Shown here in pieces: positions 10,958 through 54,561 of a DNA stretch of 64,000 bases (the first letter of the stretch is position 1; every line of letters begins with the position of its first letter). Source of the stretch: Sphyrna mokarran (taxonomy: Eukaryota). Both the position numbers and the translations under genes were made by a program. The notes under the pieces are model-generated. The model ran no database searches. It was given only the letters and a program-made list of their open reading frames with translations, and had not been told where the DNA came from. The DNA lies in NCBI GenBank assembly GCA_024679065.1, contig JAGIQG010000014.1:6572001-6636000 (forward strand), given 5' to 3'.

Positions 10958-11889
10958 CTATTGCCTGAACAGGAAGACTAGATTTAATTTTACATATTTT
11001 TGCAACATCAGAATCATTGTCCAAGGAGATTTCACGATCTTCTTCAGCTCTTCTCTGAATTTAACTTGTGTAACTGCATAAATGCAACTGTTTGTGCATG
11101 AACTTAAATGGAGGAGGAAAGCTCCGGTTTCAGTGGCAATATACTCAGGGGATGTATAATCCGGCCGGTTATGAACGATTGTACCAGAGACTAAATTACT
11201 AATGACTGCTGTCAGCCACAACAGTAGAAAGCTACTAGAAATAGTGAACGATAAAATAATAGACTTCCTTCGGTTCTGTATCTCTGGATCATTCTGATTC
11301 TCACTGCTTTGACCCCGGAGGCCCGCACGGACTTTGCTGGACAACAAAATCCGTCTGATTGTCAAAAAATTAAGTAGTAATATCGAAATGAAGGGAATCC
11401 AGTTCAATAAGATACTTTGTAACCACCTGACTGTCACACCAGTGTGAGAAGTATAAAAATCTTGTTTCGGGAGGACACCCCATTGAACACCATTTACTGT
11501 ACTTCTCTCTTTATATGCAAACCAAACGTACATGTTCTGTAAATAGATAAGGACCGTGGCTGTTGTTAAAACTGCAGCCGCTGTTCTCGCTGTGCAATAG
11601 ATTGTTTTAAACTTCTGACTGCATATGGCAATATATCGGTCAAACGTGAATGAGACTGTAAACCATACTGACATATACAGGTTATTACAAATCATAAATA
11701 TCATTAATTTGCAAACAACAGTGTAGGAGAGGAATGAATTTGGAAAACGTTTTCTTAGAAGATTATACAAAATTATATTGATGACCATCACCAACAAATC
11801 TGCTATTGCCATGGCCACCATGTAGATAGAGACACATCTGGAAAGGCCGCAATTTCCTTTGGCGAGGATCACAATGGTCACGAAATTCG
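10958..11889 (-). CDS. GPR139/GPR142-like class A GPCR, copy A-left, coding exon 2
   Basis: 7TM pattern: YMVAMAIADLLV (TM2), SVWFTVSFTFDRYIAIC (TM3, DRY), NRRKSIILSFTISSSFLLLW (TM6), LSSCTNSCIY (TM7). Polypyrimidine tract plus ttacag acceptor at 11890-11896; phase-1 join to exon 1 gives 333 aa. Confidence 0.92.
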
Positions 11890-12549
11890 CTGTAAGAACG
11901 AGAGAGAAGAACCAAGTAACGGACGCAGTCTGATGACAGTCAAAGCATACTTCAATGAAATGTTTGGGTGCACTTTTAATCAGTTAATGTCACGGACTCA
12001 TTCTGTTGATCATACGAGCAGAGGCGATATATTTACTGAAATAGATCACCATAAACTCAATATTGAGGCACTCAATGCTTTCCCCATTGCAATAATTTAA
12101 GTGTAATCGTTTCCACATGTTGAGGGAAGGGTCGCCGGATTCCGTCGACAGAATGTTAATGGAAAGTTCACCTCAGCACCATAGACAACAAAAAAAAACA
12201 AGTCTCTAATGAGATCAATTTGATTTCGGAGATTTGAATAAACCAGGTGATCTGGGATCAGCCTCCTTGCATCCATATCGATTTAATTACAGTAAGCATC
12301 ACCCGTGACACTGGTCTGAGACTCCATTCACCCTAAGTCGAAATCACACTTATTCTGCATGCCCTGGGGAAAATCCCCAGAAAGAAAATTTCGGTTTCCT
12401 CAATAAATTGTAGTTTTTCTTTTTCATTTCCTCAGTGAGTGTCACAAGCTCAAACATCTTCAGCTGCTTCATCGTGACGTTTCTTCCACTACACGGTCAG
12501 AAGTGGGAATGATCATTCATGACTCTACAATATATAATATCGCACGCGA

Positions 12550-13490
12550 ATCTTCAGATACCAAGACAGCCCATGTCCAATTGCAGCAAGATCAGGACAA
12601 CATCCAAGTTTGGGCTGACAAGTTCCAAATGATGGTTGTGTCACGCACGTTTCAGGGAATGACCGCCTATAACAATACATAATCTAAGCATTTCCCCTCT
12701 ACATTCGATGCCATCACGGAATCTGCAACTATTAGCATCAACCACAAACACAATCTGAACGGAACGAGCGATATGAAAATAAAGTTTAACAAATCTCAGC
12801 AGGGCTGGCAGCTTCCGTTGAGGGAGAAAACAGTCATTGTTTTTTTAAGCATTCCCTACGTTTGCTTCAAATCTCAACAAATGCTTATTTTAGCGAGTAA
12901 ATAGCGTCCAGAGCAGCAACTCAACGGTTAGAAATCATGCGATAATTAGCTGACCCCTTGTCTCTCAAAAACCTGTGCACTATTTATAAGTTGATGGAGT
13001 GATGGAATACTCTCCACTATCCTGCACGAGGGCGGCTCCAAGGATATTCAAAATGCTCCAGACAATGAAGGACGAAGCAGGCAGTTGGGTTGTTAATCAT
13101 CCACAAAATGATAACGACCTCAACCGCAGACGCTCTGTAGCAGCGGTGAGCAGCATTTACAGGAACTCACCAGGCACCTTACACAGAATTATACTAAACT
13201 CTCAACCACTACCATTTACAAAGTGACGGGCAGCAGATATATGGGAATAACACCATCTTAACGTTTTCCCAAAGACAGTGACAAAACTGAGTGGAATATA
13301 TATCGCCACTCATTCACTGTAGTTGTGCCAAATTCTTGGAACTCTCTTTCCCTCTACCAGCACTGTGGGTGCACTTATAACTTGGACCGCAGCGAATCAG
13401 GAAGACAGCTCACCACCCTCATCCTAAGGGCAATGAGGAATGACCAATAAAGGACATCGATGCCCACATATCACAAATTAATAAAATAAA
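12550..13490 (+). mobile_element. Old CR1-like LINE 3' fragment in GPCR A intron, antisense to gene (mirror ~52029-52969)
   Basis: Relic LQQDQDNIQVWADK post-RT peptide and tail cagctcaccacc...agggcaatgaggaatgaccaataaa...gcccacat; shared with unit B, so it predates the A/B duplication. Confidence 0.7.
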
Positions 13491-14247
13491 TGCGACCAAG
13501 CAACTGATTCATTTCTATACAGTAATTTCCTTCGCTGCACTTTTGACAACTAAATCCATCTACCACGAGGCTTGTGTCAGGTGATGCGCCGGATGCACGG
13601 TAGAGCAATCGATTGAATTTAGTGTTTTAAATTTACTTGGAGGAGTATCTCAAGAGCTGCATTCGACATGAGGAGTACATATTAGCATTTCAAATAAATC
13701 AGTGAGATGACAAAATTGAAATAAATTTTGAAATGGAAATAAGTACGAAACTGATGGATTCTACTTTTTATCACCAGCGTAAGGGAACTGTCGGGCACAG
13801 AACGGGAAATAGCGGAACGGAAAACTGATTTGCATCTTTGAGGAGAGGAGCGGCCTTCTGAATAGTTTTTTTTTATCCCTTGAAATAGCATCCAATGATT
13901 TCTGCTTTCCACAGAAGCGCATTTCGATGTATTGCCATCTTAAAGTGGTAAGAATACAGATTGTCATTGCAAATAAATCGCATACATATCTATGAACTGT
14001 TGGAAGGGCAGAGAATCAGGCTCGATCTTCGTAAATGTGGGGAGGGAAGTTAAACTCCCGGTGTCACGTTCTTCTGAGCTGAACCGCAGCTCAGAGGCCA
14101 TGCGAACCGTTGAGACTTTCCCTGATATTCAACAATTTAACTCGACAGAGAAAAGGCATTGCAATAATGACCGTCTCGCAATTAGTTGCTGAATCAGTGA
14201 GCAGTGAGATACTCCGCAACTATGAGGCAAATGGTACCTTGACTTAC

Positions 14248-14317
14248 CGGGAGCACCAAAAGCTGCTAGCACAGGATAGAAAAGTTCCTTGATCTGAAGA
14301 ATTAATGGACGGGCCAT
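14248..14317 (-). CDS. GPCR copy A-left, coding exon 1 (MARPLILQIKELFYPVLAAFGAP)
   Basis: ATG at 14317, 70 nt, then donor G|gtaagt. Splices in frame to give ...FGAP-ANFVTIVIL (TM1 with conserved Asn); conserved in all four copies. Confidence 0.88.
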
Positions 14318-15709
14318 TATGATATCGAGAAGAATGCAAACGTTTCACTAGATGCACCGTTGCATGTAAGATTCGTAAATTGTCCCCTTTTGTAATGTAA
14401 TACGTTCCCTGGGGTGAAACATCAGGCTGCTTACGAATTGCAGCAACTTAACGCAAAAGATTCCTTTCCTCTGGTTGGCCAATCGACACACTGTCAGTTC
14501 GTCAATTAACATGTGTGATCAGAAAGGCATCCCAGAGCACATGTGTTCTGCATTGGTCCCAGAATTCAGAATGGAACATCCCAATTGACGCAATGTTTGA
14601 TTCTGCCAGCTTCATCATGCACTTGTTTAAACGCACGCATTTAATGCGCAGCTTGCATCTATTTCGCTCCTGTTTCCCTGACTTTTCATTTGATGTGCAT
14701 TGTGACAATTAGTGATGAATCGACTTTTTTTATTTGTGGCCATTATCTCACTTTCCTGTGTCTTTACTACATTCTGAATTGTAGAAACTAAACTACAAAT
14801 TCACTATGAATATTAATTTATCATTATCAATGCAAACTGTAATTAAATGTGTATGACCTACTGAATCATTACTTGAGGTGATACTATTTCAGATACTTCC
14901 GTGCCAATCCGTGAAACATAGATTAGGCTTGGCATATTTTTTGTCATCCCTCTGACGCATCAGTAAGAAATTGATACGAAGCGATTAACACAGCTTGATG
15001 GGCACGTTACATTGCTCTAGATGAGTGGCAGCAAGCTACCGCTGGATATTGATCTCAGTGCAGCCGAGCTGCAAAGAAAATTTCAGAGTGCTTTGAAGCA
15101 TTTTATTGCCCTCAACTGGAACTTTAGCTATTTGAGATTTCAGTCAATCAATAAGCGATGAAAATAGTTCCTTGCCGTGTGGACACGATATTTCATCCAT
15201 TGAAACAGTTTTTGCAGGAGTCTACCCTGACCAATTAGCCAGTATTTAATTGACGAAATGTTTGCTGTCTCTGGACGAGCAATGCCTCCATTTTAACTCC
15301 TGATTCTTAAATTCAAATTCCACATAGCTACGCTACTGTCCATCAATATCATGACTTCCACCCAAAGATTTGCTAAGCTTTACTATTCTCTTATCTTGGC
15401 ATTTTGGATACTGCTCGAATTTGGCTTTCGGATTTTCAACTGAATTTATCTAATATTCCAAATCACGAGTTCGTTTCCCCTTAAGAATCTATAGCAACCT
15501 TCATATTTGAGCAGGATTTTTCACGAGAGTTGATGCCTCCTTCTGTGCTCAGAGCCAGTGTTTTTACCATGTTTTCTATTGATAAGTCTTTTAGCAAGAA
15601 GATTGGAAGGTTGGTTACTTCAATGACGCTTCAAAGACAAGCTGTTCTTGTGAAGAATAATATCTATTACATTTAACTTTACTTAGTCGATCCATATGAA
15701 GTCACGAAT

Positions 15710-16248
15710 TGGGATCTAGAGTATGCCCTTCAAAGTCTGCTCGTCCATTTAATACGTTTCAGGCTGATCTGGTTCTAACTTCAATCCCACTTTCCTCCCA
15801 ATTTTTGATTATCTTTCACCCCCTTGACGCTCAAGCAAAACATCTTACTATGCTTAAAATTATTAAAAGACACTATTTGTATTTGGAGACAGAGACTATG
15901 AGTGGCGCACGACCAAATGTAAGAGAAACAAAATCTATTCTCAGCCTTCAATTAGCGACCACTTATTTTTAAGCTTGCACTCCTCGTTCCAGATTTTCTG
16001 ACAATAAAAAATATCCTCTCCACCTTCACTCATTAATGCTCCTCAGGATGGGAAAGCTTTTGATCAAGTCATCAATTACTCTTGTCAATTCTTGTGGATG
16101 AAATTTAACCTCTCCAATCTTCCATCATCGAACAATTCAATTATTCCTAGAATTCGTGTAGTCGTCGAATATTCCTTCAGCAATGAAGAAGATCATTTTC
16201 ATTTGTCATCCAAGGGTTGTGCTGACCAGTTATTGAGGTCTCTAATGA
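15710..16248 (-). mobile_element. Old CR1 3' fragment upstream of GPCR A (mirror ~49270-49808)
   Basis: Paralogous to 34010-34565. Confidence 0.5.
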
Positions 16249-19200
16249 GCGTGATTTTCGTAGGTTCCACTGTAGTGAGGACAGGAGAATGCGGCTTGCA
16301 GGTCGTCGACGGCGGTATTCTTAGGTTTTTTTTTTAACGTGCCTTGATACTATCCATTACCTCACGAATGCGGATGCAGAGTTGGAAATTACACTCTTCC
16401 AGGCTTAGAGGTCCTGGGGAAATGTCTTGCATGATGCATTGTTAATTTTAAAATCCTGAATGATAACTTGCAAGGTGCCCTTTACACGTTTCGTCTGTGC
16501 ACCACTGAAGAGTACTCTATTTTTTAGTTCAACACCGAAGATTTAAGAGGGAATCATTGCTCAGGCATTCCGGCGACTGCTTCAATTCATCAGAGCAGTT
16601 TTTCTAACAACATTGGGAAAATCCTGACCATACAGGGTCTTCCGAGGACCTGTGTGTCTGGGAATTTGCCCTGCGTCTTGATTTTCTGACGTTTGTTGAG
16701 GCAGCAAAGGTAGAAGAGATGAATTTCATTCTGTGTCAGTTGTAGCCCGTCCAGGTCTCATTCTTGCAAAGAAGAATGGAGATTGGGGTTGTTCAGTTGA
16801 CATTGAACACGGCACTTCGCCTCACCCCTCAATTTCCGGTAAAGAGCAGCAACGATTTGGTAATTCTGGCCTTGGGCTCGCCATCCATCAGAACATAACG
16901 TGTGGAAGTGCTGCACATTTGGATGAACTTGTCCACAGGTCGCAACCTCTGTTTGTCTACTCTCAGTGCTAGCTCTTCATTGAGATTTACTTGGAGCAGA
17001 TTGAAACATGACTTACGTCTTCTTTATACTGATGGCAAGACCGAACTTATTGCATGGAGCAGATCAATTATGCATTGCTCACTGAAAGCATTTAGTGCAC
17101 AGTCGCCAGCAAATTCAAATTCATGTAATCTATCGTTGAGGAATTTCGTCTTGGTGGCGTCGCAAATTGAAAATCTGGTTGTTTGTTCCATAGCTGATTT
17201 CTATGCCTAATCCTTAGCCTCGATGGCATCAGTGCGGAGGGGTTAAGAACATGATGTTCAAGATAACCAGTGCCAGTATGCAGCACTATTACACTCCATT
17301 GATGACAGTAAACAGGGCCAAAATCACATTGTCAAGGAGGAGGCGGGCCTGTATGCCATATTGCAACCATTGAATCATCGGGTTGAGATTGTCTCGAAAC
17401 CCAAACTTCTTTATAATCATCCAGAGCCCTTCGCTGCTGACAATTTCGAAGGCTTCGCTAGATGGATGAATTTGGGGCATTGTTCGGCATTTTGTTTTGG
17501 GCATTTCTCCTGCATTTGGCGAGCAACACACACCATGCCGATGGCTTCAATTCTGTTTTCTTTTACTCACACTGGCTCTCCGGAAAGAAGCCCTGCTCAA
17601 GTCAGTCGGTTTAGAAGCATTCTGGCAAAGTCCTTTCCGGAAATAGACGGTGCATATAATTAGTTGTGTTTGTCACAGGACTGGAGATTGACTTTATTTT
17701 TGCAGATGTGAGCAAAGAAGCAGTCATTGAAGTATTGTGGAAGATCCCTTTCCCCCCCATGTGAACTTCAGAGATGTGTGTACTTTGTGAGCCTGTATGA
17801 TGCACCATATCTATAGATTTCTGCTGGAATTTGATCGGCTTCAGGAACTTTGTCATTTGACAATTACATCAAGCAGTGTCGATGGAGTGCCGAGATAAAC
17901 GGTGGGATTAACCTGGGGATGTTTACTTTACTTCATTAATATGGGACAGTCAATTGAGGACATTATCGAAGGCTCACCCGTCTGTAACATCAGAAATTAC
18001 GTTGTGAGTACTGTCGACTCTAAAACACTGAATAGCGGAGAACAATTGTCTGGGTGAGCCCTAAGGAACATCTTGACAGATTCGTAGCGGTGCCTCATGT
18101 AATTTTTGCCAACTCAGACTTACGTTTCATCTGTCTTTTGTCTCAGCCACTTGCCCTTCATCTCATGTAGTCTGCCTTGCAGTGTGCTACGAATGGGGTT
18201 ACAAACAGTTACTATGTCTCCCAATGTTTCATTTCGTTTCATTAAGGCATTCTTTGTATTTTTGCTTCGAAAGGATGCCGGATTTCAGGGCCATTTTCAT
18301 CAAAACATTCCTGATTCTTTCCCTCTGTGTGACCCAGTAACCGTTAAGCTGTGGCGTACACAGTGTCCCATCAGAAACACCGAAGTCCCTCGATCTTGTC
18401 TCCGGGTTTCTGAAGGTCACTTGGCCTCCTTCGACCATCAGTGAACTGCAGTTGGATGTGTTCGATCTTTAAACTTGAGATTTTCAGTCGTTCGGTGATC
18501 GTATTCCCTTGAGGACGTTACTTTAACTGAATCTTCAGGCATGCTTTGGAGGTAACAGTGCTCAATCCAACAGTCGGTGCCGCATAGGGTCCGAATCATC
18601 TTTAGGTCCTGACCTTTTGCAGTTCATGAGGTTCCAAAAGCCATCTTTTGCGTCGACGATTTCAGGATGTCTGAATTTGGCATGGGAGCCAGAAAACTGT
18701 GCTGGTGAGATGAAGTTCATGCTCAGCGTTAAATTGCAAGCGTGACAGTCCATTGCTGTTGCTTTTGCCAAATGCGTTTTCAGGACGACACCTCCCCAAG
18801 TTTGGTTATCTGTGCTGACTCTGGCATTAAAGTTACCAATTTTTGTTCAGCTTGTCGATGTCGCTATAATCAGGAAGTCAGCAAGTGACTTCACAGAACT
18901 CAATATATATAGTTTTTACTGTTTTGCTTCCTGTCAGCCATTGTGATCTTGCAAGATATGAGACAGCCATTTAAACTCTCTTGAAGGCTGATCAACGTGT
19001 TCACCATTTCATGATTTTTTTTTGCACAAAACCCCCATCGGCCTCGGTCCTGTCCTCTTTGGGTGAACAGTTCCAGAACGAAGTGCATCCAACCCCTCTT
19101 TCCCTGAATTGAAATTCCTCTGCCAGGCACATTCTGCTAAGTGCGGCAATGCCAACTTTAATTCGGCAAGGGCCTCTGCCCTGGAGGTCAGTTTTTCTGT

Positions 19201-19530
19201 TCTATCAGCTTGGCTGTTGGCCAAGAGGATGCGTACATTCCTTGCACCAAAAGTGAGATTTATCACATTTGTTTTCTTCCTCTTTTTGATATTGCTGCCG
19301 CTAAAGAGGTAAGAACTCCAAAGCGGCTTCTGTAATTTAGGTATTTTTTGGGAGGGACACCCTTCCTATCTCGTACCTCGGACGTTTTTTTGAGCAGTGC
19401 TGTCTTTAAAATGGCTCTTCAGTCTTTCAACGCATTCAACGCTGCTTCGCTTCAGTGACAGATCACCCCATGGCCTGAGCCACCTATATGCAGATTCACA
19501 GCTCCATTTAGAGTGTGTCACTCAAGCTGT
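16249..19530 (-). mobile_element. Degenerate near-full-length RTE-clade LINE
   Basis: Relic peptides LTFGARNVRILLANSQADRTE (cf. RTE LGTWNVRTLLD...DRPERRT) and AFEIVSSEGLWMIIKKFG...FTVINGV (cf. KAFDTVSREGLWKI..KFG...VTNGVKQG); many stops and frameshifts. Confidence 0.8.
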
Positions 19531-19629
19531 TTTGTCCCTTATTCCACGCATTTGAGATTTGGATGATAGAAATATGGAGAGAATTTGATTTTAAGTAAGG
19601 GACAGTTGACTCACTCGCTACTCGTGTAT

Positions 19630-21159: not shown

Positions 21160-21515
21160 GGCAGAAGAAGAAGGAACAGGAGTACGCAATTCAACCCCTC
21201 TAACATACTGTGCCATTCCATACAATAAGAATTAATCTATCGCACTCTTAACTACACTTTCTTGACGGTTCACCAAAAGCCTTCAACTTTATTAATAATA
21301 ACAATAGCTGTCTCCTGCTTAAATATACTCGATGGCCCACTATCCACCCCATTGTTGTGCAGTGAATTCTACAGATTCACAATCCTTTGAGAAGGATAAT
21401 TGCACCTCACCATTGCTTAATGTTTGCTACCCTTTATCGAAGAGTAAGACCTTTCGTTTTAGATTGTCTCTTCGTTGGAAGTTTGCTTTCCACCTCTACG
21501 TTGCAAATTTCTAAT
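21160..21515 (-). mobile_element. Old CR1 3' fragment (mirror ~43997-44352)
   Basis: aggaacaggagtacgcaattcaacccctc resembles the reverse-complemented CR1 tail (aggagcaggagtaggccattcagcccctc). Confidence 0.55.
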
Positions 21516-22358
21516 GCTGATGTGCGCCATAGAAAGATAATGAGTTACAGAGACATGACGTACAAGTTTTCAATCATGGTATCATGGCCTTATGTTGCAT
21601 CTGAACTGACATTCAGAACTAAAACACCCCAGATTTGTCCCTGCACATGGCCCGTGAAAGAAATAAAATGGTTACATTGGTTCATTTCACAGGACTGAGG
21701 AAATTGTTAAAGCACCTTGATGACAATTGACTTTTTGTGCAATATTGAAAGACATACATCGGGTAAAATCCTGTCATTGCAGACTGCTACAGAAAAGGCT
21801 GACTCTAAGTTCGCCACTCAGAACATTAAGGTGTACGTTATTTATGAGAACCCGAGCAAAAATACGATAATCATGCAACAAAGAAGAGAATTTCGAAGAG
21901 AACACAAAAGCACAGTTGACAAAAGTATGCAAATTCGTCGCTGCTGAACTGCTTTAATGTTTTACTTTTAACTTTGGAAAAGTATGCTTGTAATTGCTGA
22001 ATTGAAATCGACATGTATCTCATTTGAGGATGCCAGAGGAATGTTGTGTATTGAGGTCTGTATCTTGAAGTAACATATGTAAAACTTATTGATTAGCAAC
22101 CAGAGGGAAAACTCAGTTAGTTACACCTCTGAAACACTGGACAATGTGTTACTGAATAAGCCAGTCCTTCAGAAGACATGGTTTATTTAAATCTGCAATT
22201 CAACATAAAGGAACAATGATAGTGACAGTGGGGCTTGAGAGTTTTTTTGGGGAGTTTGGGACGAGTGTAGGGGCTGGGGGAGTTGTAAGGGAAGAGGAGT
22301 GAATGATTGGAGCCTGCAGGAGGTTGCAGTTGTCTGCTCAAAGGGGATGGGGAGTGTG

Positions 22359-22362
<4 letters not shown>

Positions 22363-22401
<39 letters not shown>
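22363..22401 (+). repeat. (TG)19 microsatellite
   Basis: Seen directly. Confidence 0.98.
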
Positions 22402-22402
<1 letters not shown>

Positions 22403-24009
22403 GGAGGTGGGAATAGTGGAGAGGCCTTCAGCCTCAGGGATGCAGGTCTGGTCGTTGTTGACCAGCAGAATGCAGGTGCCCGTTCCGGTGGCTTTTCCCT
22501 AGGCTCTGGGAGTACTCCTAGTGTATGCCCAGGCTTCTTGGGTGTTTTTCTGTCTCTGGAAGCCGCTCTGGAGGAATCCCCGGCCCTGAGGATGCAACGC
22601 CCGCTGCTGCTCACTTGTGGGCAGCTGCTCCGCGTCACTTCCAGACGGGAGTCTCCAGGGCACTAAGAATCGTCAATCATAATAAAATGCATTCGAGCAT
22701 TATTAGAGACTTTTAAAAAATTAGAATCAAGTTTGTGAAGCACAGAAGAAGAGTAGAAGGAAGACTAGAAAGATTATCTTGGAAGACAGATAGAGTATGG
22801 GACGCTCTATTTTAAAAGAGGTTGTCTGCTAATCCTCGCACTCGCCCTCGATGCAGTATCCGTCATGGTCATTGATGAATAAAAGTGGCTACTATTCGCT
22901 ACTTATTCTGGAAAGGTGAACGAAGAAGGATATCAAAACAGAAAAAAAGAAAAATAAGCAAGATTTAGGGTAGTTCTGTTTGCAGTTGACATTGTGGCAT
23001 TGTAATCCCCAGATAGCAATCCAGACACCGCTCGTATGGTGTGGATTCTTGGGGAGAACACCTTCATATTGTGGAATTTGAAAACGATATTTTTTCAAAA
23101 AATGTGTGATGACCATGAATGGATTGTCGTAAATACTTTCCAGTTCACGTATCCCATTAGAGAAGTGAACATGATATCCTCATCTGTTGTGAAGTTCTTT
23201 CCAACCCATCGCAATCTAGTAGATTGTTATTTTTTTTTGTCTCCGGGACGATACGAGAGGAATAGTAAATTATATCGAGGCCAGCCCCGATCCCAGTAAT
23301 GGATAAAAAGTGTTGCCCTTAGTCTTTTTAATGAACCTTCGTGTGTATATAACACGAGACTCTAACTGTTGGGTTTGTTGTATGTGCTCATCTCTTCCTG
23401 ATATTAATGATTTTTTTTATTATTTTTGCAGCGATGTTGCCTACATGACAGCATATTTTTGAGCAGAAGTTTAGGGCATCATCATACAAATTACATATTG
23501 GTTGCTTCATGTCTCCATCAGTAATTATATACGCACAACGTTTGTGGAATTCAACCAGTAGGCAACATTAAACTGAATGCATTCATTAACTTTCTGGCAA
23601 GCAATTCCAAATGGAGGGATCCAAGTTGTTTGACTGGTATCTGTCCTGCATTTCCCCTTTCATTGCTGCAGCTGCCAAAGTATATAATAAATTACCTGCT
23701 GCTCAGTAATGTAAAGATACAGCAATCTCCTGGAGGAAGCCATGAATCAACTGGTTAAACTGCACATTTTCACATTCTCTAGATTCTGAATAGAAATCAG
23801 AGCCATGCATGTTGACGAATTCTGAACTGGTGATTTCATCTGAGACAAATTGGAACATAATAGATAAGCGCACAGTACTTGGATGAACATGGCGTTTGGA
23901 GGGGGATGACAATGAATGGAAAGATCAAAGGGATTTTAAACTCTGTCATTTAGCATTAAACTAGGGGGTCGCATGAAACATTAGGTGGCACTTGCCGTGT
24001 ACATTAACA

Positions 24010-24915
24010 TTTGTGGTGTGAGGCTGCCTATGGTCAAATGCGACTGATGTAGAGTAAGGCACCAAATCTTTGTTACAAAACAACTATGGTGTAAGTTAGC
24101 ACCACCACGATAGAGCAGTATCTGTTGTAACGCAATTCCTGAATTTAAGAGGAAACGATAGTGTACGGTAAAACGTACGGTGTGATGCTTTACCTGTGGT
24201 GTGAGGCATAACAGTGTACGAAACACTTGTTACTTAAGGCGGATCCAACATTGTCAGAAGATTACTGTGGTTTAAGGCAGAACATGTTGTGTAAGATAGT
24301 AATTGTGGTGTAAGGCAGCACCTCCAATATAAGACACTACCTATATTGCAAAACGGTACCTATGTCATTCGTCATTTTTTGTTGTGTAAGGCACCATGCG
24401 CGGTGCAAGGCAGCATTTTTGTCGTGAGACAGTACCAGCTTTGTAAACGTGTGGTATAATGTAGAACCTGCAATGAAAGACACTTTCCGCAGTGAGGGCA
24501 ATTCTTGTGGAGAAGTGCAATATCTTGGGTGAAAACATTTTCCGCGGTCTAAGGTCCTTTGTTGTAACACAACAACTACGGTGTAAGGCAGTCCTTGCGG
24601 TTTAAAGTGGTACCTGTGTTATAACCCAGCTCAGAAGTTTCAAGGTATTGTGTGAAATCAGCCAGCACCAGTGAAGGCAGTGTCCACGTTGGAAGGCACC
24701 AGCTCCGCTGTAAACCAATTGTTGTAGTGTAAGGACATGTGGATAGTGCAACACAATACCTCTGAAGCAATCAGTACCTGCGGTGTAAAGAAGCTCCAGT
24801 GGTGTAAGATGGAACTTATGATGTAAGGAAGTAGCTTCGATGTTTGAGAGCACTTATTGTGTAACAGCAACTGCAGTGCAAGGTATTATTTGCGTTTTCC
24901 TGAAGCACCTGTGTT
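24010..24915. repeat. Degenerate ~19-bp minisatellite in unit B; mirror ~40596-41500
   Basis: Same unit; paralogous to 4330-4945 but longer. A further short stretch lies at ~25785-25980. Confidence 0.78.
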
Positions 24916-26243
24916 AGAATGCATGCCAGCAATTTCAATGTGTTTAATGAAGTCGGCCTGAAACGTGCGTTTTGTACATTGAATTTGGCGCAGGTAAGCT
25001 TAAAATGTTTGACTCCAGGTATGACTTAAATGAACTGCTGCTGAGCTTGTCCCATAAAGTAAATTTCAGAATATAGTTAACACATAGAAAGAAAAGTAGC
25101 AAAATGAATTTTAGCAATTACAAACCAGAAACAACCAATGTATTATATAAACCTTAACAGCTCAGCACATCATGCGTACTAGCATACGCCACTAGTTTCG
25201 ATTTAGCACAAAAATTATGTATGCCCAATGAGTTTTCAGCTCTGTGAGGCCTGTGGTTGTTCGTTCTTTAGATGGAGAAAAGAAACACTTGCTTCTCCAT
25301 TCTGGAACTCCCAACACCTCGAAGTGGAGATAGTGCCGCTGCTTTCCTTCAGCTTGCAAACTATCAACAGCAAAGCGTTCACTCCAGAAAAGTAAGAAAT
25401 ATTATTTCAAACTAGCCAGCAGAATTTTAAATAGAACAGAGAGGCAAAATAGTGCACCCAGCCTCGAGTCTAAGCAACTTCGAAATAAAAACAACCAAAA
25501 CTAAAAGTGAAAGAATCTTGCGAAGGTAAATAAAAGACATCTCTTTCCCTTTGACCGATAACCGTTGTCCCGCAGCAATTCCAAATTTCCAATAACTCTA
25601 AAAGAGTGCTTTAGGTCCAGATTGAAAATAAACACAACACAAATTAATCATTTAAGGACCAATTAAATTACATTAATCAGACAGCTCGGTGCCTGTTTAT
25701 TATTGCAGAAAACACGATTAAACATACATATCTTAAACATAGTAGCCTCACCTCTGCATTGTCATTCGTTACTTGAAGTCAAAAGCAGTACCTGTTGCAA
25801 AGTGGTATCTGTAGTGTAACATGGATTTATTTTTTGGTTAAAGGTACCGCCTGTAAGACAGTAACCGCGATGTAAAGGATTATCTGAGTCTAAGGCAGAA
25901 GTTTTGGGGCTATGCAGTGCTTGGAGTGTAGGGCGACAACTGTGCTGTAAGGGCAGTAACTGTGATGTCAGGAAGTAGGCAAGATGTGGAGATGCCGGCG
26001 TTGGACTGGTTTAAACACAATAAGAAGTCTCACAAAACCAAGTTAAAGTCCAATATGTTTTTTTTAGTAGTAAAGGACTCTAGCATTTGAGGCTCTGCCT
26101 CTTTGTCAGTTGAGTTCACCAATGATTCTGCAGTAGCGTCAGAAGATAGAACAAAGAGTGGAATAATGCTTCTGATGTCGTTTATTTAAAGACACCGTTA
26201 TATTGTTTGTGTCAGGGAGGCCAGCATTCAAACGTGTACTTCA

Positions 26244-27164
26244 CTATTGCCTGAATATGGAGACTAGATTTAATTTTACATATTTTTGCAACATCAGAAT
26301 TATTCTCCAAGGAGATATCACGACCTTCCCTGAATTTAGCTTGTGTAACTGCATAAATACATGTGTTTGTGCATGAACTTAAATGCATGAGCATTGTTCC
26401 GGTTTCAATGGCGATATATTCAGGAGATGTATCATCCAGCTGGATCTGAGCGACCATCCCACTGACTAAAAACTAACGACTCTTGTCAGCCACAACAATA
26501 GAAAGCTACTAGAAATAGTGAACAATAAAATAATAGACTTCCTTCGGTTCTGTATCTCTGGATCATTCTGATTCTCACTGCTTTGAGCCCGGAGGCCCGC
26601 ACGGGTTTTGCTGGACAACAAAATCCGTCTGATTGTCAAAAAATTAAATAGCACTATCAAAGTGAAAGGAATCCATGTCAGTAAGATACTCTGTAACCAG
26701 CTGAATGCCATACCAGTGTGAGAGGAATACAAATCTTGGTTGGGGATGACACCCCATTGAACACCGTTTATTGTGCTTTTATGTTCATATGCAAACCAAG
26801 TGTAAGAGTTGTGTAAATAGATAAGGACTGTAACTGTTATTAAAACTGCAGCCGCTGTTCTCGCTGTGCAATACGTTGTTTTAAACTTCTGACTGCATAT
26901 AGCAATATATCGGTCAAACGTGAATGAAACTGTAAACCATACTGACATACACAGGTTATTACAAAGCATATATATCATTAATTTGCAAACAACAGTGTAG
27001 GAGAGGAATGAATTAGGAAAACGTTTTCTCAGAACGTTATACAAAATTACATTGACGAGCATTACTAACAAATCTGCTGCTGCCATGGCCACCATGTAGA
27101 TAGAGACACATCTGGAAAGACCGCAATTTTCTTTGGCGAGGATCACGATGGTTCACGAGATTCA
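26244..27164 (-). pseudogene. GPCR copy B-left, exon 2, frameshifted
   Basis: Versus intact B-right: +1 nt at ~27152 (gtgaacc vs gtgacc), -1 nt at ~26469 (gttagtttttag vs gttagttatttag), -11 nt at ~26328 (agctgcagaag missing). Exon is 921 vs 932 nt. Confidence 0.85.
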
Positions 27165-27824
27165 CTGTCAGAACGAGAGAGAAGAGACAAGTAATGGAAA
27201 TAGTCTGGTAACACTCAAAGTATACGTTAGTGAAATGTTTGGGTACCCTTTTGCTCAGTTATTGGCACGGAGACATTCTATTGAACAAGCGAACAGAGGT
27301 GATATATTTATTGAAATAGACACCATAAACTCAATATTTAGGCACTCAATGCTTTCCCCATTGCAAACATTTAAGTGTAATGTTTCCACATGTCGAGGGA
27401 AGGGTCGCCCGATTCCGTCTATAGAATGTTAATGCAAAGTTCCCCTCAGCACCATCGACAACAACAAAAAAAACGAGTCTCAGATGAGATCAATTATGAT
27501 TTCGGAGGATTGAATAAACCTAGTGATCTGGGATCAACCTCCTTGCATCCGTATCTATTTAATTACAGTAAGCATCACCCCTGACATTGGGTTTGAGACT
27601 GCATTCACCCTAAGTCGAAATCACACTCATTCTGCATGCCCCGAGGGAAATCCTCAGAAAGGAAATTTCGGCTTCCTCAATAAATTGTAGTTTTTTTTCA
27701 TTTCCTCAGTTAGTGTCCCAGGCTCAAATATCTTCAGCTGCTTCATCGTGACCTTTCTTCCACTACAAGGTCAGAAGTGGGAATGATCATTCATGATTCC
27801 ACAATATATAATATCACACGTGAA

Positions 27825-28770
27825 TCCTCAGATACCAAGACAGCCCGTGTCCAATTACAACAAGATCTGGACAACATCCAGGTTCGGACTGACAACTGAC
27901 AAATAATGGCTGCGTCACACAAGTTTCAGGGAATGACCCCCTACAACAATAATAATCTAAACATTTCCCCCTCGACATTCGAAACCATCACTGAGTCTGC
28001 AACTATAAGCTTCATCCATTAGCACAATCTGAACTGAATGAGTGATATGAAAATAAAGTTTAACAACACTCAGCAGGGCTGGCAGCTTCCGTTGGGGGAG
28101 AAAACAGTTCTTTTTCTTTCTAGCTTTCCCTGCGTTTGCTCCTGATTCCAGCATCCACTGTATTTTGCTTATTTTAGCAAGTAAATATCGTCCACAAGAT
28201 CAGATCAGCGTTTAGAAATCTTGAGGTGATTAATTGACTTCTTGTCTCCCAAAATCCGGTGTACTACTTATATGTTGATGGAGTGATGGAATACTCTCCA
28301 TTTTCTTGCACGAGGCAGCTCCAAAGACACTCAAGATGCTCTAGACAATGCAGGACGAAACAAACGGTTGGAATGCTAACGCGTCCACAAAATGTTAATT
28401 ACCTCTACCGCAGATGCCCTGTAGCAGCCTTGAGCAGCGTTTGCAGGTAATCACCAGGCACCTTACACAGCATTGTACAAAACCCTCGACTAACACCATC
28501 CAGAAAGTCACGGGTAGCAGATATATGGGGACGCTGCCATCTTAATGTTCTCTCAGTCGTCAACCAAACTGAGTGGAAATTTATAGCCGTTCCTTCACTG
28601 CAGTTGTGCCAAAATCTTGGAACTCTCTTTCCCTCTACCAGTAGTGTGGGTGCACTTATAACTTGGACCGTAGTGAATCAGGAAGACAGCTCACTACCCT
28701 CATCCTGAGGGCAACGAGGAATGAACAGTAAGTACATCGGCGCAGACATCTCACAAATGAGTAAAATAAA
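27825..28770 (+). mobile_element. Old CR1-like LINE 3' fragment in GPCR B intron (mirror ~36730-37675)
   Basis: Relic LQQDLDNIQVRTDN peptide; paralogous to 12550-13490. Confidence 0.7.
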
Positions 28771-29549
28771 TGCAACCAAACAAATGTTTCATTTCTATAT
28801 AGTAATTCCCTGTGCTGCCGTTTTGACAATTAAAACCATCTGCCACGAGGCTTGTGTCATTTGATGCATCGGCCAATTGTGTAAGTGAGCGCGGTGGCAC
28901 GGTGGGACAATCGATTGAATTTAGTGTATTAAGTTTACTTGAAGAGGGGGTATCTCAAGAACGGCATCCCATATCAGGGATACCCAATAGTATTTCAAAT
29001 AAATCAGAGAGATGACAATAATAGCTATAGAAATAAATACAAGACTGTGGGATTCTATTGTTTATTATCTGCTTAAGGGAACTGTCGGGTACAGAAAGAG
29101 AAATAGCGGGACGGGAAAACTAAATTGCATCCGTGAGGGGAAGAGCAACCTCCTGAATAGTTATTTTTTCCCCCATGAAATATATTCCAATGATTTTTAT
29201 ACTTTCCGGAGATGCTGCATTTCGAGCTGTTGTCATCTTAAAGGGGTAAATATACAGATTGTCATTGCAAATAAATCGCATACAGACCTATGAACTGTTG
29301 GAAGGGCGGAGAATCAGCCTCGATCTCCGTAAATGTGGGAAGGGAATTTAAACTCCAAGTGCCACATTATTCTGAGCTGAACCGCGGCTCACAGGCCATG
29401 CGAACATTTGAGACTCTCACTGCTATTCAACAATTTATCTCGGCAGAAAGAAAAAAACAATGCAATAATGACCTTTTCGCATTCGGTTGCTGAATCAGTG
29501 AGCAGTGAGATATTCCGCAACTATGCAGCAAAATGGTACATTCACTTAC

Positions 29550-29619
29550 CGGGAGCACCAAAAGCTGCCAGCACTGGATAGAAAATTCCCTTGATCTGTA
29601 GAATTAATGGGAGGGCCAT
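29550..29619 (-). pseudogene. GPCR copy B-left, exon 1 (intact exon of disrupted gene)
   Basis: Mirror of 35881-35950; ATG at 29619, gtaagtg donor at 29549-29543. Confidence 0.83.
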
Positions 29620-31291: not shown

Positions 31292-31383
31292 NNNNNNNNN
31301 NNNNNNNNNNNNNNNNNNNNNNNNNNNNNNNNNNNNNNNNNNNNNNNNNNNNNNNNNNNNNNNNNNNNNNNNNNNNNNNNNNN
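31292..31383. other. Assembly gap (92 N)
   Basis: Run of N seen directly. Confidence 1.
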
Positions 31384-33760: not shown

Positions 33761-33794
33761 GGGGTTTTCACAATTAATTTTCACAATAAATGCT

Positions 33795-33997
33795 TCACTC
33801 CCACATCCCAAAAATGTGCTCTTAGGCTGATTGGGTAACAAATTGCCCTATATTGGTCCCTATATGGGAATCTTCAACAATAGACATAGCCAAAGGACAA
33901 GGCTATGTCATGAGGGACGTTAGGACGGCGGTGTGGGCTCGTTGGGCCGAAGGGCCTGTTTCCCGTGCTGTGTTGCCTTTGTTCGTCGTGTTCTCTT
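33795..33997 (+). mobile_element. 3' half of an HE1/V-SINE-like element
   Basis: ctcccacatcccaaaaatgtgctcttaggctgattgg...aaattgccc core and gggccgaagggcctgtttcccgtgctgt CR1-type tail; family recognised from memory. Confidence 0.65.
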
Positions 33998-35669: not shown

Positions 35670-35815
35670 CTTATGTTAATTGACGGAGCTTCATGGACAG
35701 ACAGTGTGTCGATTGGCCAACCAGCATTCCCTCCAGAGGGAAGGGACCTTTTAAGTTAAGTTGGTGAAACTGACGCAACTTTCTCCCCAGGGAACATATT
35801 ACCGTATAAAAGGGA
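35670..35815 (+). promoter_or_regulatory. Putative proximal promoter of GPCR B-right (homeodomain, CCAAT, O/E-like site, TATA)
   Basis: TAATTG 35677-35682, ATTGG 35712-35716, TCCCCAGGGA 35784-35793, TATAAAA 35805-35811, ATG 35881. Same order in unit A at ~51005-51135 (ACCCCAGGGA, TACAAAA). Confidence 0.5.
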
Positions 35816-35880: not shown

Positions 35881-35950
35881 ATGGCCCTCCCATTAATTCT
35901 ACAGATCAAGGGAATTTTCTATCCAGTGCTGGCAGCTTTTGGTGCTCCCG
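35881..35950 (+). CDS. GPCR copy B-right, coding exon 1 (MALPLILQIKGIFYPVLAAFGAP)
   Basis: ATG at 35881, donor gtaagtg at 35951; not called in the ORF track. Confidence 0.88.
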
Positions 35951-38334: not shown

Positions 38335-39266
38335 TGAATCTCGTGACCATCGTGATCCTCGCCAAAGAAAATTGCGGTCTTTCCAGATGTGTCTCTATCT
38401 ACATGGTGGCCATGGCAGCAGCAGATTTGTTAGTAATGCTCGTCAATGTAATTTTGTATAACGTTCTGAGAAAACGTTTTCCTAATTCATTCCTCTCCTA
38501 CACTGTTGTTTGCAAATTAATGATATATATGCTTTGTAATAACCTGTGTATGTCAGTATGGTTTACAGTTTCATTCACGTTTGACCGATATATTGCTATA
38601 TGCAGTCAGAAGTTTAAAACAACGTATTGCACAGCGAGAACAGCGGCTGCAGTTTTAATAACAGTTACAGTCCTTATCTATTTACACAACTCTTACACTT
38701 GGTTTGCATATGAACATAAAAGCACAATAAACGGTGTTCAATGGGGTGTCATCCCCAACCAAGATTTTTATTCCTCTCACACTGGTATGGCATTCAGCTG
38801 GTTACAGAGTATCTTACTGACATGGATTCCATTCACTTTGATAGTGCTATTTAATTTTTTGACAATCAGACGGATTTTGTTGTCCAGCAAAACCCGTGCG
38901 GGCCTCCGGGCTCAAAGCAGTGAGAATCGGAATGATCCAGAGATACAGAACCGAAGGAAGTCTATTATTTTATTGTTCACTATTTCTAGTAGCTTTCTAT
39001 TGTTGTGGCTGACAAGAGTCGTTAGTTATTTAGTCAGTGGGATGGTCGCTCAGATCCGGCCGGATTATACATCTAATGAATATATCGCCATTGAAACCGG
39101 AACAATGCTCGTGCATTTAAGTTCATGCACAAACACATGTATTTATGCAGTTACACAAGCTAAATTCAGGGAAGAGCTGCAGAAGGTCGTGATATCTCCT
39201 TGGAGAATAATTCTGATGTTGCAAAACTATGTAAAATTAAATCTAGTCTCCATATTCAGGCAATAG
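38335..39266 (+). CDS. GPR139/GPR142-like class A GPCR, copy B-right, coding exon 2
   Basis: Acceptor ctctctcgttctgacag ends at 38334. In-frame join ...FGAP-VNLVTIVIL gives 333 aa with DRY motif and seven hydrophobic segments; TAG at 39264-39266. Confidence 0.92.
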
Positions 39267-43149: not shown

Positions 43150-43153
<4 letters not shown>

Positions 43154-45888: not shown

Positions 45889-45989
45889 ATACACGAGTAG
45901 CGAGTGAGTCAACTGTCCCTTACTTAAAATCAAATTCTCTCCATATTTCTATCATCCAAATCTCAAATGCGTGGAATAAGGGACAAAAC

Positions 45990-51200: not shown

Positions 51201-51270
51201 ATGGCCCGTCCATTAATTCTTCAGATCAAGGAACTTTTCTATCCTGTGCTAGCAGCTTTTGGTGCTCCCG
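51201..51270 (+). CDS. GPCR copy A-right, coding exon 1
   Basis: ATG at 51201, donor gtaagtc at 51271. Confidence 0.88.
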
Positions 51271-53629
51271 GTAAGTCAAGGTACCATTTGCCTCATAGTT
51301 GCGGAGTATCTCACTGCTCACTGATTCAGCAACTAATTGCGAGACGGTCATTATTGCAATGCCTTTTCTCTGTCGAGTTAAATTGTTGAATATCAGGGAA
51401 AGTCTCAACGGTTCGCATGGCCTCTGAGCTGCGGTTCAGCTCAGAAGAACGTGACACCGGGAGTTTAACTTCCCTCCCCACATTTACGAAGATCGAGCCT
51501 GATTCTCTGCCCTTCCAACAGTTCATAGATATGTATGCGATTTATTTGCAATGACAATCTGTATTCTTACCACTTTAAGATGGCAATACATCGAAATGCG
51601 CTTCTGTGGAAAGCAGAAATCATTGGATGCTATTTCAAGGGATAAAAAAAAAACTATTCAGAAGGCCGCTCCTCTCCTCAAAGATGCAAATCAGTTTTCC
51701 GTTCCGCTATTTCCCGTTCTGTGCCCGACAGTTCCCTTACGCTGGTGATAAAAAGTAGAATCCATCAGTTTCGTACTTATTTCCATTTCAAAATTTATTT
51801 CAATTTTGTCATCTCACTGATTTATTTGAAATGCTAATATGTACTCCTCATGTCGAATGCAGCTCTTGAGATACTCCTCCAAGTAAATTTAAAACACTAA
51901 ATTCAATCGATTGCTCTACCGTGCATCCGGCGCATCACCTGACACAAGCCTCGTGGTAGATGGATTTAGTTGTCAAAAGTGCAGCGAAGGAAATTACTGT
52001 ATAGAAATGAATCAGTTGCTTGGTCGCATTTATTTTATTAATTTGTGATATGTGGGCATCGATGTCCTTTATTGGTCATTCCTCATTGCCCTTAGGATGA
52101 GGGTGGTGAGCTGTCTTCCTGATTCGCTGCGGTCCAAGTTATAAGTGCACCCACAGTGCTGGTAGAGGGAAAGAGAGTTCCAAGAATTTGGCACAACTAC
52201 AGTGAATGAGTGGCGATATATATTCCACTCAGTTTTGTCACTGTCTTTGGGAAAACGTTAAGATGGTGTTATTCCCATATATCTGCTGCCCGTCACTTTG
52301 TAAATGGTAGTGGTTGAGAGTTTAGTATAATTCTGTGTAAGGTGCCTGGTGAGTTCCTGTAAATGCTGCTCACCGCTGCTACAGAGCGTCTGCGGTTGAG
52401 GTCGTTATCATTTTGTGGATGATTAACAACCCAACTGCCTGCTTCGTCCTTCATTGTCTGGAGCATTTTGAATATCCTTGGAGCCGCCCTCGTGCAGGAT
52501 AGTGGAGAGTATTCCATCACTCCATCAACTTATAAATAGTGCACAGGTTTTTGAGAGACAAGGGGTCAGCTAATTATCGCATGATTTCTAACCGTTGAGT
52601 TGCTGCTCTGGACGCTATTTACTCGCTAAAATAAGCATTTGTTGAGATTTGAAGCAAACGTAGGGAATGCTTAAAAAAACAATGACTGTTTTCTCCCTCA
52701 ACGGAAGCTGCCAGCCCTGCTGAGATTTGTTAAACTTTATTTTCATATCGCTCGTTCCGTTCAGATTGTGTTTGTGGTTGATGCTAATAGTTGCAGATTC
52801 CGTGATGGCATCGAATGTAGAGGGGAAATGCTTAGATTATGTATTGTTATAGGCGGTCATTGCCTGAAACGTGCGTGACACAACCATCATTTGGAACTTG
52901 TCAGCCCAAACTTGGATGTTGTCCTGATCTTGCTGCAATTGGACATGGGCTGTCTTGGTATCTGAAGATTCGCGTGCGATATTATATATTGTAGAGTCAT
53001 GAATGATCATTCCCACTTCTGACCGTGTAGTGGAAGAAACGTCACGATGAAGCAGCTGAAGATGTTTGAGCTTGTGACACTCACTGAGGAAATGAAAAAG
53101 AAAAACTACAATTTATTGAGGAAACCGAAATTTTCTTTCTGGGGATTTTCCCCAGGGCATGCAGAATAAGTGTGATTTCGACTTAGGGTGAATGGAGTCT
53201 CAGACCAGTGTCACGGGTGATGCTTACTGTAATTAAATCGATATGGATGCAAGGAGGCTGATCCCAGATCACCTGGTTTATTCAAATCTCCGAAATCAAA
53301 TTGATCTCATTAGAGACTTGTTTTTTTTTGTTGTCTATGGTGCTGAGGTGAACTTTCCATTAACATTCTGTCGACGGAATCCGGCGACCCTTCCCTCAAC
53401 ATGTGGAAACGATTACACTTAAATTATTGCAATGGGGAAAGCATTGAGTGCCTCAATATTGAGTTTATGGTGATCTATTTCAGTAAATATATCGCCTCTG
53501 CTCGTATGATCAACAGAATGAGTCCGTGACATTAACTGATTAAAAGTGCACCCAAACATTTCATTGAAGTATGCTTTGACTGTCATCAGACTGCGTCCGT
53601 TACTTGGTTCTTCTCTCTCGTTCTTACAG

Positions 53630-54561
53630 CGAATTTCGTGACCATTGTGATCCTCGCCAAAGGAAATTGCGGCCTTTCCAGATGTGTCTCTATCTACATG
53701 GTGGCCATGGCAATAGCAGATTTGTTGGTGATGGTCATCAATATAATTTTGTATAATCTTCTAAGAAAACGTTTTCCAAATTCATTCCTCTCCTACACTG
53801 TTGTTTGCAAATTAATGATATTTATGATTTGTAATAACCTGTATATGTCAGTATGGTTTACAGTCTCATTCACGTTTGACCGATATATTGCCATATGCAG
53901 TCAGAAGTTTAAAACAATCTATTGCACAGCGAGAACAGCGGCTGCAGTTTTAACAACAGCCACGGTCCTTATCTATTTACAGAACATGTACGTTTGGTTT
54001 GCATATAAAGAGAGAAGTACAGTAAATGGTGTTCAATGGGGTGTCCTCCCGAAACAAGATTTTTATACTTCTCACACTGGTGTGACAGTCAGGTGGTTAC
54101 AAAGTATCTTATTGAACTGGATTCCCTTCATTTCGATATTACTACTTAATTTTTTGACAATCAGACGGATTTTGTTGTCCAGCAAAGTCCGTGCGGGCCT
54201 CCGGGGTCAAAGCAGTGAGAATCAGAATGATCCAGAGATACAGAACCGAAGGAAGTCTATTATTTTATCGTTCACTATTTCTAGTAGCTTTCTACTGTTG
54301 TGGCTGACAGCAGTCATTAGTAATTTAGTCTCTGGTACAATCGTTCATAACCGGCCGGATTATACATCCCCTGAGTATATTGCCACTGAAACCGGAGCTT
54401 TCCTCCTCCATTTAAGTTCATGCACAAACAGTTGCATTTATGCAGTTACACAAGTTAAATTCAGAGAAGAGCTGAAGAAGATCGTGAAATCTCCTTGGAC
54501 AATGATTCTGATGTTGCAAAAATATGTAAAATTAAATCTAGTCTTCCTGTTCAGGCAATAG
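53630..54561 (+). CDS. GPR139/GPR142-like class A GPCR, copy A-right, coding exon 2
   Basis: Acceptor ttcttacag ends at 53629; translation identical to A-left. Confidence 0.92.

Follow-up and report, generated by a model that had tools for sequence, protein, structure and literature searches.

Several families of class A receptors, among them the OR, TAAR, V1R/ORA, FPR and MRGPR families, consist of clustered, compact genes whose products combine a conserved signalling face with a variable pocket; in the FPR and MRGPR clusters, a pocket-variable, clustered, birth-and-death pattern is typical. In the catshark, 8 OR-type genes, about 3 ORA, 3 TAAR, 2 TARL and 32 annotated canonical V2R genes have been counted (PMC11979771), and cartilaginous fishes are regarded as having few GPCRs and olfactory receptors, a paper on the whale shark writing of a “relative paucity” (PMC8455134). 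The gene for GPR139 has two exons, and its human and zebrafish orthologues share 70% identity (PMC7318219). Its response to Trp/Phe is assigned to the residues F109, H187, W241 and N271 (PMC5430874), and the known ligands of the wider group are endogenous aromatic-tailed neuropeptides (PMC8557429). Beside GPR139/GPR142 stand non-mammalian orphan class A receptors, GPR210A/B (PMC6504862) and “Orphan 139-like” (PMC5207463), which have been presented as two or three low-copy subtypes from the coelacanth, gar and fishes; the main text on GPR210A/B contains none of the terms “shark”, “cartilaginous” or “chondrichth” (PMC6504862). Here we describe a locus of the hammerhead Sphyrna mokarran whose receptors lie close to these orphans and appear to belong to a much larger family.

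Results

The window, by which we mean the whole stretch of 64,000 nucleotides analysed, holds four copies of a class A GPCR gene, each with two exons and 333 amino acids. In every copy a first coding exon of 70 nt is separated from a second exon of 932 nt by a phase-1 GT-AG intron of about 2.36-2.38 kb, and about 8 residues precede TM1. On the minus strand, A-left has coding exon 1 (ATG, 23 codons plus 1 nt, GT donor) at 14,248-14,317 and exon 2 (TM1-TM7, helix 8 and stop; Pfam 7tm_1 E 1.6e-17) at 10,958-11,889, while coding exon 1 of B-left lies at 29,550-29,619. On the plus strand, B-right occupies 35,881-35,950 and, with an intact exon 2, 38,335-39,266; A-right occupies 51,201-51,270 and 53,630-54,561, the latter exon having the same sequence as that of A-left. 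Three of the four frames (A-left, A-right, B-right) are intact, and a family HMM run over all six frames found no fifth copy in the window. The original prediction of four short-N-terminus copies thus holds for the frames but not for the number of genes: since the coding sequence of A-left does not differ from that of A-right by a single letter and the copies are mirrored, the locus contains two distinct genes. An older tandem duplication, also predicted, is borne out by the distance between A and B (88.9% identity in nucleotides, 81.1% in amino acids, dS 0.16, intron distance 0.175), which carries an overall dN/dS of 0.65.

By sequence and predicted fold, A and B are class A (rhodopsin-like) GPCRs. 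Pfam 7tm_1 scored 64-67 bits against a cut-off of 30.5 and was the only model to match, the OR, TAAR and V1R Pfam models giving no match. The motifs D107-R108-Y109 and N290/Y294 are present, the AF2 model of A-left has seven helices at a pLDDT of 90.7, and all of the 50 best Foldseek matches listed are class A. Searches for tRNAs and Rfam families gave no match.

Upstream of A-left, the A/B alignment outlines a conserved core promoter-like block (14,388-14,490, minus strand) with a CCAAT-type and a TATA-like box, names that we use as consensus labels for a putative function; the TATA-like box reads TACAAAA in A and TATAAAA in B (at about 35,805-35,811 in B-right). Downstream of gene A lies a degenerate array with a 19-bp period (9,000-10,500), and further such arrays, copied along with the tandem unit, lie at about 5,500-6,500 and 24,000-24,800 (lag-19 match 0.43-0.46, against a shuffle maximum of 0.31-0.35). 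In none of three regions upstream of the promoters did a 26-bp array rise above shuffles.

The predicted disrupted copy is B-left, whose exon 2 (26,244-27,164, minus strand) carries three frame lesions: a 1-nt insertion near 27,152, a 1-nt deletion near 26,471 and an 11-nt deletion near 26,325. A stop falls at about codon 66, as read by eye, and all five B-left-specific substitutions alter an amino acid, a pattern of decay like that of a pseudogene. Sequencing error is an unlikely origin of the lesions, given that one of them is a deletion of 11 nt and that five substitutions change the amino acid.

The mirrored arrangement comes from an inverted repeat in which the left arm (1,526-31,287) matches the right arm (64,000-34,194 in reverse) at 99.3% identity over at least 29.8 kb, running off the window. 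The left side carries tandem units A (about 1-16,250) and B (about 21,342-31,287), which are 73-83% alike, and the arms diverge by about 0.1% over left-arm 1.5-19 kb and by 0.95% over 19-31 kb. At the centre, an indel-rich contig tail (about 31,179-31,291) runs into an assembly gap of 92 N (31,292-31,383), followed on the right contig only by a young LINE of very high copy number whose reverse-transcriptase frames are broken (31,384-33,950, minus strand; Pfam RVT_1 in two of the three frames scanned; depth bins of 10^6). The recent inversion originally read into this repeat is doubtful as a biological event.

On balance we judge the mirror more likely to be two haplotypes of one locus joined at the gap than a true palindrome; with joined haplotypes, the broken B would be a null allele that segregates, and the doubling to four copies may be an assembly artefact. 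A genomic palindrome, with four loci in the genome and outer arms homogenised by gene conversion, nevertheless keeps a good share of the probability: the arm differences are mostly substitutions (144, against 27 indel events), derived letters occur on both arms (50 left, 28 right), a divergence of 0.95% over 12 kb is large between alleles, and the receptor family is prone to duplication. Besides the gap with its ragged tail and young LINE, what speaks against it is run X1, which has a single letter at each listed site and the ancestral one at 17 of 22 polarisable sites; if two fixed arms had been collapsed at random, about half would be expected. The depth of the arm contigs in run X1 (35-43), like that of single-locus LINE joints (20-44), points weakly the same way. 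Run X2, which leaves much of gene B uncovered, served to polarise sites only.

A family search returned 487 matches among 2313 candidates, of which the best 120 came from sharks throughout, and 93 clusters at 50% identity had E <= 1e-30. The further paralogues sought after the original prediction number at least 25 to 31 per species in three sharks (Pristiophorus at least 31, Heterodontus at least 29, Heptranchias at least 25, among the matches listed), these being 90%-identity clusters counted by eye near one query. The automatic label “probable GPR139” masks members of the family; the ESM Atlas yielded the same “probable GPR139” clusters and, as leads only, nematode Srw-type and rotifer look-alikes.

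Phylogenetically, A and B nest inside an expanded clade of sharks, rays and chimaera (support 94/94), and all 17 of its members that were looked up are from sharks, rays or Callorhinchus. Its sister is a one-copy amphibian-sturgeon gene (100/98), represented by 20 amphibian clusters, each from a different named species (Xenopus tropicalis among them), plus one sturgeon. A second one-copy subtype lies outside (100/100), as do amphioxus genes, and three sharks also carry this other subtype at 60-66% to the coelacanth. In the tree, a protein of the coelacanth (P0215/P0275) stands at the head of the sister subtype; going by UniProt-Ensembl numbering for H3B118, this protein would be GPR210B (ENSLACP00000015589), and the second one-copy subtype is probably “GPR210B”. 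Together with coelacanth, fish and amphibian orphans, the family forms a gnathostome clade apart from invertebrate receptors (93/92; 97.3/100 in a second tree of the same topology), presumably the GPR210 / “Orphan 139-like” lineage. A motif check of the 299 proteins retrieved turned up no GPR139 or GPR142, so that neither is in the trees. A and B group with uncharacterised non-mammalian orphans. GPR165 had been entertained as the family's identity and was dropped, since it is placed with GPR83 (PMC6504862).

Sequence comparison nonetheless makes GPR139, within the wider GPR139/GPR142 group, the nearest characterised receptor. It is the best PDB match to the single protein (phmmer 35 bits, E 8.9e-8, human chain) and to the profile (E 1e-27, against 3.9e-21 for the next, NTSR1; 193 matches), while GPR142 was not among the 60 of the 193 matches listed. 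GPR139 shares the two-exon structure of the shark genes, and its intron presumably interrupts the same P|A codon as theirs, where TM1 begins. Orthology, however, does not hold. A match of E 8.9e-8 is far below the 70% human-zebrafish identity of GPR139 itself, and Foldseek ranks GPR139 17th among near-equal matches, a search that did not separate class A receptors from one another. The shark receptors have a longer ECL2 and a longer ICL3, with a family motif, and form dozens of paralogues where GPR139 and GPR142 are each one conserved gene. Mapped by eye, the Trp/Phe site F3.33, H5x43, W6.48, N7x38 becomes C, Q, W, A/T in A/B, so that only the Trp is kept, and the columns of this site are among the most variable in the family. 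The proposal that the cluster is an expanded set of GPR139/GPR142-type sensors of L-Trp and L-Phe, for which the best-match rank and shared two-exon structure would speak, is accordingly very improbable: of the four residues on which that activation depends, three are different.

Across the expanded clade, entropy is 2.61 bits at 33 positions that we take to form the pocket, against 1.51 at 171 other TM positions (p 6e-10) and 2.10 at non-pocket extracellular positions (p 3.5e-4), whereas the one-copy lineages show the reverse (0.76 vs 1.08 and 0.26 vs 0.70 bits); this contrast sets paralogues against orthologues, with hand-placed helix anchors and p values that assume independent columns. The same pattern appears inside each of four single species (p 6e-8 to 4e-3), and between A and B 13 of the 33 pocket positions are different, against 24 of the 171 others. 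Of the members, 95-100% retain R3.50, D2.50, N5.58, N7.49 and Y7.53, and the entropy of the intracellular half is low (1.20 bits). Such a pocket, variable within an otherwise conserved frame, is in keeping with a set of sensors that has diversified. Between A and B, pocket pN is 0.243 and pS 0.283 (ratio about 0.86; one pair, 33 codons), which, with the overall dN/dS, amounts to no excess of amino-acid change, and neutral drift of a relaxed pocket would give the same. A and B belong to a subfamily without the ECL2 cysteine, a loss that is old and not a sign of decay because seven close relatives, which come from four further shark genera, have it too.

Discussion

With many paralogues, tandem units, a pseudogene and repertoire-like variability, the clustered birth-and-death family originally suspected is supported. 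We lean, by a little, towards seeing A and B as two tandem paralogues in a cartilaginous-fish repertoire of chemical-sensor receptors. Within an old chordate lineage of orphans related to GPR139, one subtype was kept as one copy in amphibians and sturgeon and multiplied in sharks, rays and chimaeras through tandem duplication of a cassette of promoter plus two exons, with losses through pseudogenisation as in B-left. Members retain the intracellular G-protein face and differ in the pocket, each perhaps with a separate ligand, likeliest small peptides or metabolites of external or microbial origin, and all may signal through a shared G-protein route of some sensory or barrier epithelium, by analogy with olfactory receptors, TAARs and FPRs. 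Two observations speak against this picture: the wider group is known to respond to endogenous neuropeptides (PMC8557429), and a catshark brain-plus-olfactory library has no GPCR among its 50 most specific genes (PMC11979771). The shark genes resemble the OR, TAAR, V1R/ORA, FPR and MRGPR families in being clustered and compact, with a short N-terminus, pseudogenes and the measured combination of conserved signalling face and variable pocket; they are of other origin, and their nearest invertebrate sequences resemble peptide-type receptors. Relative to the parts of the GPR210A/B and “Orphan 139-like” accounts considered, which likewise concern non-mammalian orphans beside GPR139/GPR142 (PMC6504862, PMC5207463), what is additional here is the expanded clade, together with the sister gene in amphibians and the variability of the pocket.

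The same pocket statistics would also follow if local segmental duplication simply multiplied the cassette while the pocket drifted neutrally, leaving receptors ligand-free or redundant; whole units of 15-20 kb are duplicated, and there have been losses of the ECL2 cysteine, of P4.60 and perhaps, in A, of the TATA box. We hold this to be unlikely, given intact frames in sharks, rays and a chimaera, an intracellular half that is still constrained and the age of the cysteine loss. Within a sensor repertoire, the tissue could be leukocytes, skin or gut, with receptors serving as immune or barrier pattern sensors and not in smell or taste. The resemblance to FPR and MRGPR clusters favours this, as does the result from the catshark library, although low-expressed repertoires would be missed there (PMC11979771); immune genes are absent from the window, and we regard the alternative as possible but improbable.

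Returning to the chemical-sensor repertoire, the window alone offers little beyond two paralogues and a caution on copy counts, and the wider interest lies in the apparently undescribed family. No description of its expansion was found in the openly accessible literature, and 24 whale-shark supplementary files contain no “receptor 139”, GPR139 or GP139. At 25-31 or more members per species near one query, the family equals or tops the catshark OR, ORA, TAAR, TARL and V2R counts. A bolder and quite speculative extension is that it forms the largest class A chemosensory repertoire of sharks, rays and chimaeras, derived from a GPR139-related orphan that is one-copy or lost in other vertebrates, with each cell of the olfactory organ, or each taste or skin cell, expressing one or a few of them: a fifth vertebrate olfactory receptor family. 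If true, it would account for chemical discrimination beyond a handful of OR, TAAR and ORA genes. The one-copy amphibian sister gene, with its invariant pocket and presence in Xenopus tropicalis, offers a handle on the ancestral ligand, and catshark tissue RNA-seq already exists, from which the family's expression can be read at once.

Receptor genes in the window

Self-comparison of the window reveals two tandem units on each arm of an inverted repeat, 73-83% alike and holding one GPCR gene each. The gene encodes 333 aa in two coding exons, of 70 and 932 nt, separated by a phase-1 GT-AG intron of 2358 nt in gene A and 2384 nt in gene B. The original prediction had counted four copies of this two-exon, 333-aa anatomy, one of them disrupted, and both count and structure are correct, but only two distinct genes exist: A is identical on the left and right arms, and the left-arm copy of B is a broken B. 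The right-arm B has an intact frame with 81.1% identity to A; the disrupted left-arm B carries indels of +1, -1 and -11 nt and five private substitutions (polarised with A), all five altering an amino acid. A family HMM run over the six frames of the window found no further copies. In Pfam the receptor proteins match 7tm_1 only, and the predicted structure has seven helices (pLDDT 90.7). A compact promoter-like block common to A and B contains a CCAAT-type box and a TATA-type box. The latter reads TACAAAA in gene A (14388-14394) versus TATAAAA in gene B (35805-35811), a replacement that may mean weak expression of A.

The inverted repeat and a possible false duplication

The inverted repeat (1526-31287 against 64000-34194; 99.3% identity in the self-comparison) is centred on an assembly gap of 92 N (31292-31383); the contig to the left of the gap ends in an indel-rich tail, and a young LINE lies to the right of it. 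A total of 144 substitutions and 27 indel events separates the arms. Over 1.5-19 kb, leaving aside a LINE fragment at 9.0-9.5 kb, they number about 1 per kb, and over 19-31 kb 9.5 per kb. In that fragment (9065-9481 versus 56038-56461), unlike in the nearly identical sequence around it, substitutions and indels form a cluster, the pattern expected if a high-copy repeat had been mis-polished.

Contigs of the sequencing run X1 were compared over 19.5-39.4 kb using 35 of 40 listed rows (five rows, four in LINEs and one in a repeat, were set aside; 265 further rows lie outside this list). At these 35, X1 has the right-arm base at 24 and a private base at 11. When 7 sites inferred to have the left-arm base are added to the 24, 22 of the 31 can be polarised, and X1 is ancestral at 17 of these. 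X1 looks more like a third allele than like a mixture of two fixed arms, subject to linkage among sites and to variants dropped by contigs. The eight arm contigs listed have a depth of 35-43, and 13 of the 15 joints listed, mostly single-locus LINE contigs, lie at 20-44, a comparison that is weak because the joints are the best supported of 119 and depth is not a copy number. A true inverted duplication, instead of an assembly artefact, is favoured by the 0.95% divergence across 12 kb, which is high for alleles, and by derived letters on each arm (50 and 28). We nevertheless judge it somewhat more likely than not that the mirror is a false duplication. The predicted "tandem plus inverted cluster" is a modest one, and half of it is probably an artefact.

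A large receptor family of cartilaginous fishes

The protein search gave 487 matches among 2313 candidates, and the best 120 of the 487 are all from sharks (11 species, 46-63% identity), auto-named almost always "probable G-protein coupled receptor 139". Among the matches listed, there are at least 31 members in Pristiophorus, 29 in Heterodontus and 25 in Heptranchias, these being lower bounds from 90% clusters counted by eye, with a few possible isoforms. An exhaustive search yielded 860 clusters at 50% identity (93 with E ≤ 1e-30). When 30 proteins were looked up, 17 belonged to the expanded clade, the many-copy clade containing A and B, all from sharks, skates, rays or Callorhinchus; the remaining 13 include salamander, coelacanth, teleost, frog, amphioxus and Aplysia. 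These matches mark the source of the window as a cartilaginous fish, probably a shark that has no near entry in the protein database. The receptor family genuinely exists and is unexpected, and what it does can be tested directly. Other auto-names also occur (allatostatin-A, 5-HT4, CCR3, FMRFamide, vasopressin V2, capa, oestrogen receptor-like), and such a mixture would mask family size in annotation-based counts.

For an IQ-TREE run, 31 rows were chosen from more than 400 proteins, GPR139 and GPR142 not being among them. Amphioxus falls outside two jawed-vertebrate subtypes, a topology repeated with 52 rows and, in FastTree, with 226. The coelacanth-type subtype (100/100) is present in sharks as well as in coelacanth, ray-finned fishes, amphibians and reptiles, and looks single-copy in these groups; by accession numbering, its coelacanth protein is probably the GPR210B of Rinne et al. 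The other subtype (100/98) unites the expanded clade (94/94, with a chimaera sequence inside) and an amphibian-sturgeon gene, which shows a single cluster for each species across 20 amphibian rows and occurs in sturgeon too. Because a single expanded clade stands beside the amphibian-sturgeon gene, the tree indicates that the expansion arose from one subtype, and its start probably predates the chimaera-elasmobranch split.

Related genes, at least two of them, occur in amphioxus outside both jawed-vertebrate subtypes, and some carry the automatic name GPR139 (proteins P0263, P0260, P0333, P0338, P0345, P0356, P0357). In Stegostoma and Hyla, the one-copy sister subtype is labelled "transmembrane protein 183A isoform" (P0347, P0400), which hints at conserved linkage to or overlap with TMEM183A and makes that gene a synteny anchor for the subtype.

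Binding pocket and disulfide

Weighted column entropy was calculated for 33 generic pocket positions (helix anchors set by eye) versus other TM positions, in the 339 of 423 sequences covering at least 240 profile columns. In the expanded clade (184 rows, some placed by tree position) the pocket reaches 2.61 bits versus 1.51 for other TM positions, and also exceeds non-pocket extracellular positions (2.10); the values are 0.76 versus 1.08 in the coelacanth-type lineage (112 rows) and 0.26 versus 0.70 in the amphibian lineage (25 rows). The pocket excess is present within all four single shark species tested. The intracellular half of the expanded clade is conserved (1.20 bits), with R3.50, D2.50, N5.58, N7.49 and Y7.53 kept at 95-100%.

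The ECL2 cysteine is found in 171 of the 184 expanded-clade rows and is invariant in both one-copy lineages. In A and B it is replaced by Val (residue 162; window region 11404-11406), and P4.60 is lost too. Their closest relatives are 7 of the 13 other rows without this cysteine (Heterodontus, Carcharodon, Rhincodon, Stegostoma), and C3.25 is also missing in 4 of these 7. A and B thus fall into an old subfamily that lacks the usual TM3-ECL2 disulfide, and the absence of this bond may produce a more open pocket.

The best solved relative by sequence is human GPR139, weakly with a single protein (E 8.9e-8) and clearly with a profile (1e-27, against 3.9e-21 for the next match, NTSR1). According to Nohr et al., GPR139 activation requires F109, H187, W241 and N271, and one site is common to Trp and Phe (PMC5430874). 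At these four positions genes A and B carry C, Q, W and A/T, keeping only the W, which makes Trp/Phe sensing of the GPR139 kind unlikely.

Proposed role and novelty

No description of the expansion was found in the literature searched on GPR139 with sharks or cartilaginous fishes, a search that most subscription journals fall outside; GPR139 does not occur in the main text of the catshark (PMC11979771) and whale shark (PMC8455134) genome papers, nor in 24 whale shark supplements (PMC8455134). Rinne et al. use the names "GPR210A/B" for low-copy fish orphans near GPR139/142 (PMC6504862), and a table of Furlong and Seong gives one row to "Orphan 139-like" receptors, with no further details (PMC5207463). 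The present analysis contributes four points: single-copy sister genes exist beyond the cartilaginous fishes, pocket variability was compared with controls, one subfamily lacks the disulfide, and the mirror is open to doubt.

We lean slightly towards a putative sensor repertoire, which would have grown through tandem duplication of receptor genes and been pruned via pseudogenisation, each sensor having a distinct ligand and all sharing a G-protein output; within this reading, the odds are about even between smell or taste on one side and immune or barrier sensing on the other. Neutral drift of the pocket, which we consider rather unlikely, would fit the comparison of A with B (dN/dS 0.65; pocket pN 0.243 versus pS 0.283), values that leave positive selection unsupported by this pair. 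As candidate ligands of the sensor repertoire, peptides come first, because protostome members of the wider group bind aromatic-tailed neuropeptides (PMC8557429).

Other sequence in the window

Degenerate arrays with a 19-bp period lie downstream of the genes (5500-6500, 9000-10500, 24000-24800 and their mirrors) and cause several spurious repetitive ORFs. Between the tandem units, at 17000-19400 and in its mirror, lie degraded reading frames that resemble old LINE fragments.
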